From assembly GCF_003334305.1 (NCBI RefSeq), contig NZ_QOWS01000055.1: a DNA stretch of 2,411 nucleotides; one strand, written 5' to 3'. The notes under the pieces were generated by a model that made no database searches, was not told the origin of the DNA, and saw only the letters and a program-made list of their open reading frames with translations. The stretch is from Escherichia coli. Its GTDB lineage: Bacteria; Pseudomonadota; Gammaproteobacteria; Enterobacterales; Enterobacteriaceae. A program made the position numbers and the translations under genes. Below are positions 1,033 through 2,406 of this stretch, in pieces. The first letter of the stretch is position 1, and every line of letters starts with the position of its first letter.

Positions 1033-2020
1033 CTTACTGAAAAAACACCGTACTCTTGTTAAACATCGTCGGATTGGACTGATTACGTTGCACTTTCATC
1101 ACATATTCCAGTTTATCAATTTGGCTTATCATCTACTCCAGACGCTGGTCATCATTGACCAATAGTCTGATATGGCTTTTGTCGCGGTCCTGAATCGGCA
1201 GGCAGAAAATGACTTCAACGTTAAAAGGGCGACGGGAAAAAGCCCACAAAGGTGAGTCATTACGCCCGGATAATAAACAGGCTCCTCCCTGTTATGGAAT
1301 CCGTTGTATTGTCCATAATGTCTGGGTTTTTAATGCACACTGGATAACAACCGGACGAATCTTCAAATATCACTGGTGCTGACAGCCGGTTTGAATTCAT
1401 CTCACAACCCTGTATAGAGCGAATCTCCTGCCTGCGCGTCACTCCACTCCATGGTATCAACTTCACACTCTTTATCTGCGGCTAGTTTCAGTCACCAGAT
1501 AAGCATCGACTATGAAAGGTGAGCCATGACAACATAACGTTGGTAACGCTCTGATGCCTTAACGGAAGATGCCTGCCACCACAGGGAATGTAAACGACTG
1601 AAGTGTGGCCTTTAATGCCGTGAACGGCTCATGGTCTCCTGGCACGGTTGCCGCCCCAACCTGTAACAACATTCCACAGTACAATGTCTGTCAGAGCCGG
1701 AGCCTCCCATGCCTGTTGTAGTAACTCTACCAGTTACGAACATCCTTCCTCAAAAGTGTTGTCGTATCTCGCATGGAAGAAAAGATCCTGACTAAGCAGC
1801 AACACACAACGTATTGCGGAACCTGCATGTTTTTCCTGTAACTAGTGTATTACGACATATGGTAATAGCTACCTGTGTGGTTTCGCTGGATAACAAGGGG
1901 ATTTATTCGCAAGTAAAATGCCTGATAAAATACACGAATCTAGTAATCATCAATATTTACTCTGGTCGAATGAAGTGTGAAGTGGATTGCCAGCAGATGC
2001 GGCCAGTGATCCACCGCCTG

Positions 2021-2048
2021 CTTAACAAAACGCCGGATTTCCCCCGGC
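2021..2048 (-). terminator. Candidate Rho-independent terminator for a minus-strand transcript
   Basis: Perfect all-GC 5-bp stem GCCGG (2032..2036) / CCGGC (2044..2048) with a 7-nt loop. On the minus strand this hairpin is followed directly by GTTTTGTTAAG (reverse complement of 2021..2031), a U-rich tail. On the + strand no T-run follows it directly. Confidence 0.3.
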
Positions 2049-2352
2049 TCTGAAAGTAAGGCTTCGGTTATTTGCACTATTTTATCTCTGTTGAATTTGG
2101 TTAAGTCGGTGCAGACTCATCAACACAAGTACGGTTCGATGCAAACAGCTGTGACTGGCAATATGAAAGGAATGATGAATCAGTCAGGATGACAAAGTGC
2201 CGGCTGACCGGAGGGGACGCAGGAAGATTCACGGGGGGACCAGCACCAGGGAACAGCGCCACATCCCGGGTGGTACTGCTTTGATGCGCCCGGTGACACA
2301 AAGCCCGGATTGTTCCAGACATCCTGAATTAAACTGTAGTGGCACACTAAAT

Positions 2353-2380
2353 TTGGCCACCTGATGAAAGGTGATATTCT
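2353..2380 (+). promoter_or_regulatory. Putative sigma70 promoter for the downstream gene
   Basis: -35-like TTGGCC (2353..2358), 16-nt spacer, then an extended -10-like TGaTATTCT (2372..2380). This would place the transcription start about 20 nt upstream of ATG 2407. Weak consensus matches, hand-assigned. Confidence 0.25.
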
Positions 2381-2396
2381 CACCACAACACAAAAC

Positions 2397-2402
2397 AGGT
2401 GA
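2397..2402 (+). promoter_or_regulatory. Ribosome-binding site of the downstream gene
   Basis: AGGTGA at 2397..2402, 4 nt upstream of ATG 2407..2409. Confidence 0.4.
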
Positions 2403-2406
2403 CTTA

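Follow-up and report, generated by a model that had tools for sequence, protein, structure and literature searches.

The deoK deoxyribose module is located in large genomic islands of Escherichia coli and is regarded as horizontally acquired (PMC5382810, PMC7545054). It is present within large islands of many pathotypes, and the deoK (deoQKPX-type) modules of the pathogenicity islands of E. coli (e.g., PAI I-AL862, CFT073, O104:H4, and NCTC 86) have a gene set and gene order identical to those at the locus described here. Also related to parts of this locus are the intact backbone of P4/CP4-type islands, in which the gene order is Gp2, a 190-aa protein, AlpA, and a PF27752-family gene (loci L047 and L053), and ISEc31-like insertion sequences of the IS3 family. 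What we report concerns the DNA that flanks the deoK module and not the module itself.

We analyzed a window of 2,411 bases (the whole stretch of DNA, numbered from its first base). Over its full length it is 100% identical to chromosomal DNA of E. coli strain A7, and 1,175 of 5,426 complete E. coli genomes contain 80% or more of it. The A7 copy lies inside a genomic island with pgtABCP-like genes on one side and a block of DUF932, antirestriction, RadC, and YeeU-CbtA genes on the other, a block that is typical for P4/CP4-type islands. The window contains a DeoR-family repressor gene, annotated at 250..1032 on the plus strand and divergent from ribokinase-like, FucP-like permease, and aldose-1-epimerase-like genes. 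Its ORF ends at 1032 and begins with ATG at 250, the RefSeq start (260 aa), or alternatively with TTG at 247. The protein scores 231 bits (E 1e-68) against the NCBIfam model for DeoR (NF007961), slightly less than the 244-bit cutoff, and is therefore a paralogue of DeoR rather than DeoR; neighboring genes match TIGR02152 (ribokinase) and TIGR00885 (fucP). Both the content and the order of these genes, with the repressor divergent from the kinase, the permease, and the epimerase-like gene, are those of a deoK-type operon. We take the module genes to be those named deoQ, deoK, deoP, and deoX in the deoQKPX nomenclature. On the strength of the gene set, the literature (PMC5382810; PMC13432705 for Salmonella DeoK), and that nomenclature, the regulator and its neighbors are predicted to form a deoK-type deoxyribose module.

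An earlier note had singled out positions 1033 to 2406 as a gap between the regulator and the next gene that lacks credible ORFs and is not AT-rich, and this description is accurate. The regulator stops at 1032 and the next annotated start, the ATG at 2407, is that of an IS3-family orfA; GC content is 46.6% for the gap and 46.0% for the regulator gene; and the ORFs that had been listed (1260..1466 minus, 1814..2053 plus, 2101..2322 minus, and 2180..2386 minus) are present exactly as given. The longest stop-free stretch in six frames is 85 codons. Among 300 shuffles of 1033 to 2406, the longest open stretch averaged 100 codons (SD 22) and 75% reached at least 85 codons, and the gap is therefore no richer in open reading frames than random sequence. 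To account for it, three readings had been offered: a structured RNA locus, a recently decayed gene, and a long regulatory region. Decay is the reading that stands, with several genes involved and without the word "recently"; the other two find no support.

We conclude, with a probability of roughly 0.87, that 1033 to 2406 is nonfunctional debris in a horizontally acquired E. coli genomic island and contains no functional locus. The stretch is of an ordinary kind, a neutrally evolving mosaic of remnants plus one IS end, located where a captured metabolic module adjoins an island backbone. The decayed portion consists of no fewer than three remnants of genes: one ilvN-like, one from an island gene of the PF27752 family, and a scrap from the island gene for a 190-aa protein. 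Part of this was explained beforehand, since RefSeq (PGAP) annotates 1034 to 1260 as a pseudogene (acetolactate synthase small subunit/ACT domain, frameshifted, internal stop) in all related genomes inspected. A BLASTX-type comparison matched frameshifted known genes, the very outcome that the earlier note had named as refuting its more interesting readings. Six-frame translations with stops masked matched only ilvN in NCBIfam and PHROGs. The PF27752-type pseudogene was missed by that search because the family is absent from both collections; it was detected through low-identity DNA matches to annotated genes in other E. coli and then by tblastn.

Segment A (1034..1272, minus strand) is the 3' remnant of an ilvN-like gene (acetolactate synthase small subunit; residues ~19-96 of 96), recognized with NF006036 and tblastn. 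It matches NF006036 with an E value of 4.3e-25; one frame covers profile positions 35-102 of 102, and a different frame covers positions 24-35. In tblastn, the intact IlvN of Citrobacter is 78% identical over residues 30-97, in two frames (E 2e-32). The segment holds no intact full-length ORF: its score of 87.6 bits is below the 128-bit cutoff of NF006036, a single frameshift lies at ~1237-1240, a TAG at 1135-1133 stops the frame, and ~18 codons are lacking from the beginning of the gene. It is therefore a pseudogene remnant. The regulator stop (1030-1032) and the remnant stop (1036-1034, minus strand) lie tail to tail with a single base between them. The same one-base tail-to-tail junction is seen in 34 loci of Citrobacter, Raoultella, Salmonella arizonae/diarizonae, Leclercia, and others (L005-L046, ~10783-10790).

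We compared this arrangement with 42 loci of other Enterobacteriaceae, fetched with the regulator protein as the query. In 34 other-genus loci, the DNA alignment (blastn) begins at the base after the regulator stop and always ends at 1269-1271, and an intact 96-aa ilvN lies at the aligned position in all three loci checked (L005, L006, and L013). The remnant keeps the tail-to-tail position after the regulator stop that ilvN has in other Enterobacteriaceae; unlike intact ilvN, it is 5'-truncated and frameshifted, carries a stop, and is without an upstream ilvB. Since ilvBN is an operon, a remnant of ilvB was expected upstream of the ilvN piece, and no protein or DNA match to it was found in any frame. 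From the fixed end of the alignment to other genera at 1269-1271, the E. coli module would therefore have been cut from a chromosome with the regulator-ilvN arrangement, taking four-fifths of ilvN with it. The truncated piece would then mark the original right-hand boundary of the captured module and is usable to trace the donor. The closest DNA to the ilvN fragment, from Citrobacter portucalensis and C. braakii, reaches 80% identity; over the ilvN piece, the two Salmonella subspecies fetched (S. enterica subsp. arizonae and diarizonae) reach 76%. The nearest non-E. coli relatives among the 42 fetched loci, Citrobacter and Pseudocitrobacter, are only 80-85% identical, and therefore no fetched genome is the direct donor.

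Segment C (~1568..2077, minus strand; tblastn) is a decayed copy of an island gene of 170-182 aa whose homologues carry PF27752. Three intact members of the family match it by tblastn with E values of 5e-34, 2e-33, and 2e-32. The matched part is residues 1-168 of 182, divided among three frames; identity is 59% over residues 1-70 and 40% over residues 75-151, and residues 142-168 are in the third frame. At the DNA level, the segment is 69-70% identical to loci L047 and L048. From a GTG start at 2077, the reading frame is interrupted by four in-frame stops (1942-1940, 1844-1842, 1736-1734, and 1631-1629) and by two or more frameshifts, in the vicinity of 1860 and 1650. The PF27752 family comprises 329 clusters at 90% identity, nearly all from Escherichia and all with precomputed PF27752, and its members bear varying source names ("hypothetical," "inovirus Gp2 family," and "YagK/YfjJ domain-containing"). 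An intact homologue (L047 3828-4376) had no match at E ≤ 10, including to PF11726 (YagK_YfjJ_C), in the Pfam-A set searched, which did not contain PF27752, and BLASTP of the intact homologue against the neighboring 189-aa canonical Gp2-type protein gave an E value of 26. The "YagK/YfjJ" label therefore rests on source annotation.

Homology to L047 at the DNA level extends beyond the decayed gene to 2213, and 2078..2213 (no strand assigned) is its former upstream intergenic spacer, corresponding to the L047 spacer between the PF27752-type gene and alpA; the L004/L048 lineage departs from the window at 2189. Segment D (2264..2334, minus strand) is a scrap of another island gene, equivalent to residues ~112-133 of a 190-aa hypothetical protein and cut by the IS at 2334/2335, with 2214-2263 as the out-of-frame remainder of the same gene. 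The segment is identical at 50 of 50 positions to a 64-aa ORF in L049, which in turn is 54% identical to the 190-aa protein of L047 over 35 residues (99-133; E 1e-9), and its equivalent in L050 is called a frameshifted, truncated pseudogene by PGAP. Pfam gave only a nonsignificant YagK_YfjJ_C match to the 190-aa protein (E 0.44). In intact islands, the gene for this protein sits upstream of alpA, for which we found no match in the window. On the minus strand, the order of the remnants (190-aa scrap, spacer, PF27752-type gene) mirrors the intact order of the L047/L053 backbone; unlike in the intact backbone, the PF27752-type copy is dead and alpA is missing. A deletion of ~570 bp would have taken out alpA together with the end of the adjoining 190-aa-protein gene.

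The right end of the window, segment E (2335..2411, plus strand), is the left end of a 1,259-bp IS3-family element, with the ATG of orfA at 2407 after the terminal TGTAGTGG... and a leader. The full element (L001 10335-11593) is a discrete unit that begins with TGTAGTGG... and ends with ...CCACTACA, TG...CA-type ends that form imperfect inverted repeats. It contains IS3-type orfA and orfB, on which PGAP annotates a "programmed frameshift," and orfA matches the IS3 transposase model NF033516 with an E value of 2e-13. Copies occur at 6,074 places in 2,416 genomes, and in 1,649 genomes a place covers at least 80% of the element. It is ~92.5% identical to copies annotated as ISEc31-like (IS3 family) and is therefore an iso-form or a related IS. 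In most genomes, the IS is absent here and the match ends at 2334. The flanks of this IS copy, AAC on one side and CTT on the other, show no target-site duplication of 3-4 bp, and the right-hand DNA, upstream of the DUF932 gene, differs from what follows 2334 in IS-free strains. The lack of a target duplication together with the changed right flank suggests an IS-associated deletion or rearrangement, or possibly recombination between two IS copies.

Other insertion sequences interrupt the stretch in other strains. Apparent mosaic breakpoints at ~1494 and ~1536 proved instead to be insertions of IS2 (L055, ~2700-4000) and IS1 (L056, 3228-3925). One copy of 1536-2077 is located on a 38-kb record of a plasmid collection. 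The stretch withstands disruption and travels with island fragments.

Segment B (1272..1540, ~270 bp, no strand assigned) is an orphan piece that goes with every copy of the deoK module and is found in 1,595 of 5,426 genomes. Its right boundary is approximate, falling between 1484 and 1568. We found no protein, RNA, or phage homologues of it. At the DNA level, ~130 nt (1348-1476) match, at 74% identity, a spacer without annotation that separates trbC from a DEAD/DEAH helicase gene in four conjugative plasmids of E. coli (e.g., p_STEC1585_1; L052 3001-3131), with common blocks that include CTTCAAATATCACTGG and TTGAATTCAYCTCACAACC; this spacer is itself a mosaic. An origin from an Fe-alcohol-dehydrogenase gene, raised by a 124-aa fusion protein in the protein database (P0007), was rejected. 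The protein comes from a single metagenome contig with 2x coverage (L054; ENA ERZ1755893 NODE_15330, 1,663 bp), in which window positions 38-1388 are fused, at 1388, to the 5' end of an Fe-alcohol-dehydrogenase gene in foreign GC-rich DNA. The contig is most likely an assembly chimera.

Substitution rates were compared in an alignment of the window with six lineages (GZ04-0086, E5, CFT073, O104:H4 C227-11, LD22-1, and 300444), a neutrality test that comprises 7 sequences and only ~3 deep lineages. In the regulator gene, mean pairwise diversity is 0.012 at codon positions 1 and 2 and 0.044 at third positions, and substitutions by codon position (7, 4, and 20) show the third-position bias of coding sequence. 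Segments A, B, and C have diversities of 0.046, 0.041, and 0.041, respectively. Set against 0.044 at third positions, A, B, and C therefore vary like largely unconstrained sites. Furthermore, all five stop codons of A and C are common to 7 of 7 lineages, which are ~4-8% diverged. These genes were dead before the module spread among islands, and the recent decay that had been proposed is inaccurate. The block A+B+C is intact in ~1,000-1,600 genomes. This might point to retention, but it is accounted for just as well by linkage to a module under selection.

We propose that the deoxyribose module came from the chromosome of an enterobacterium with convergent repressor and ilvN genes, and that its capture would have carried along the 3' four-fifths of ilvN (segment A). 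This piece may then have been joined to the orphan segment B and, after that, to a P4/CP4-type island backbone. Within the backbone, the PF27752-family gene would have decayed (segment C), and a deletion would then have left only the scrap D of the gene next to alpA. In this strain, an IS3-family element would have inserted at 2334/2335, replacing the DNA beyond (segment E). The homologies, the disabling lesions and their occurrence in every lineage examined, the neutral rate of substitution, and the IS boundaries are observations; the order of these events, like the alpA deletion among them, is what we infer from them.

It is very unlikely that 1272-2334 holds a structured noncoding RNA or sRNA, for which segment B or the purine-rich 2190-2334 would be the likeliest places, with the deoK module or island genes as its target. 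A stretch that is long, unannotated, of normal GC content, and conserved in many genomes invites the idea, and the literature describes sRNAs from the island of strain AL862 that carries deoK (PMC3326304), none of them reported at this position. Terminator-like hairpins number four against 1.5 ± 1.5 expected, which is not clearly above chance. The Rfam scan that the earlier note had proposed as a check, run with 4,227 models and permissive filters on both strands, gave 0 matches at E ≤ 1. Fold z-scores over 52 sliding windows average -0.1 with a minimum of -1.95, and their spread is that of chance. The diversity of the stretch equals the third-position rate of the regulator, and the comparison of substitution patterns among homologs, likewise proposed, found neutral rates in A, B, and C and no support for an RNA. 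Remnants of protein genes account for most of the length, and IS insertions are tolerated within it. The RNA locus that had been suggested is thus left with zero Rfam matches, folding at background level, and neutral substitution rates. In addition, a search of the window for tRNA and tmRNA genes found none.

Segment B deserves separate consideration. It is extremely improbable that a small orphan protein (68-75 aa) is encoded in it, on the minus strand at 1260..1466/1487. Four variants keep the minus-strand frame (1260-1487) open, one of them with an in-frame deletion of 9 nt, and gene callers predict the small ORF in several assemblies. Against this, a comparison with 5.8 billion proteins returned 11 matches, every one of which derives from this one locus in E. 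coli, with starts that vary and fusions made by read-through. There is no third-position bias among the substitutions (4, 7, and 7 by codon position), and the diversity of 0.041 is the neutral rate. The ORF has neither a Shine-Dalgarno sequence nor an ATG start and is Cys/Ser/Pro-rich in composition, and the homologous plasmid spacer is not open. A role of any kind for segment B, be it as an sRNA, as a small protein, or as a site of recombination or mobilization that might aid movement of the module between islands, has a similarly slender chance of being real.

Least probable of all is a role for the stretch as an extended regulatory region or as a site bound by the neighboring DeoR-family repressor, as its position beside the regulator gene, the sole point in favor, had led the earlier note to propose: the idea of a natural target finds no support, since 1033-2406 and the deoK/deoQ promoter region (1-249, either strand) have 0 k-mers of at least 10 bases in common (0.8 expected), no repeat family links the two, promoter-like sites (2 against 2.2) and terminator matches are at chance level, the downstream DNA varies between islands, operators are expected in 1-249 since the regulator is divergent from its operon, and no ancestral regulatory region lay here because intact ilvN occupies the position in the 34 other-genus loci with alignable DNA.

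Debris of this kind remains the preferred reading of 1033 to 2406, and it matters little outside annotation. A long ORF-free stretch of normal GC content in a genomic island is on its own no sign of a hidden RNA locus, and pseudogene remnants retain the composition of coding DNA long after death. RefSeq leaves the PF27752-family pseudogene (~1568-2077) unannotated or overlaid by tiny spurious ORFs. On pieces of this pseudogene and of its neighbor, its recent annotations show CDSs of 23-64 aa in place of pseudogene calls, named "hypothetical" or "UCP030791 family putative phage-derived protein" (L004 6474-6545 and 6743-6817; L060 2166-2303; L049 4219-4413); these short CDSs are probably annotation artifacts.
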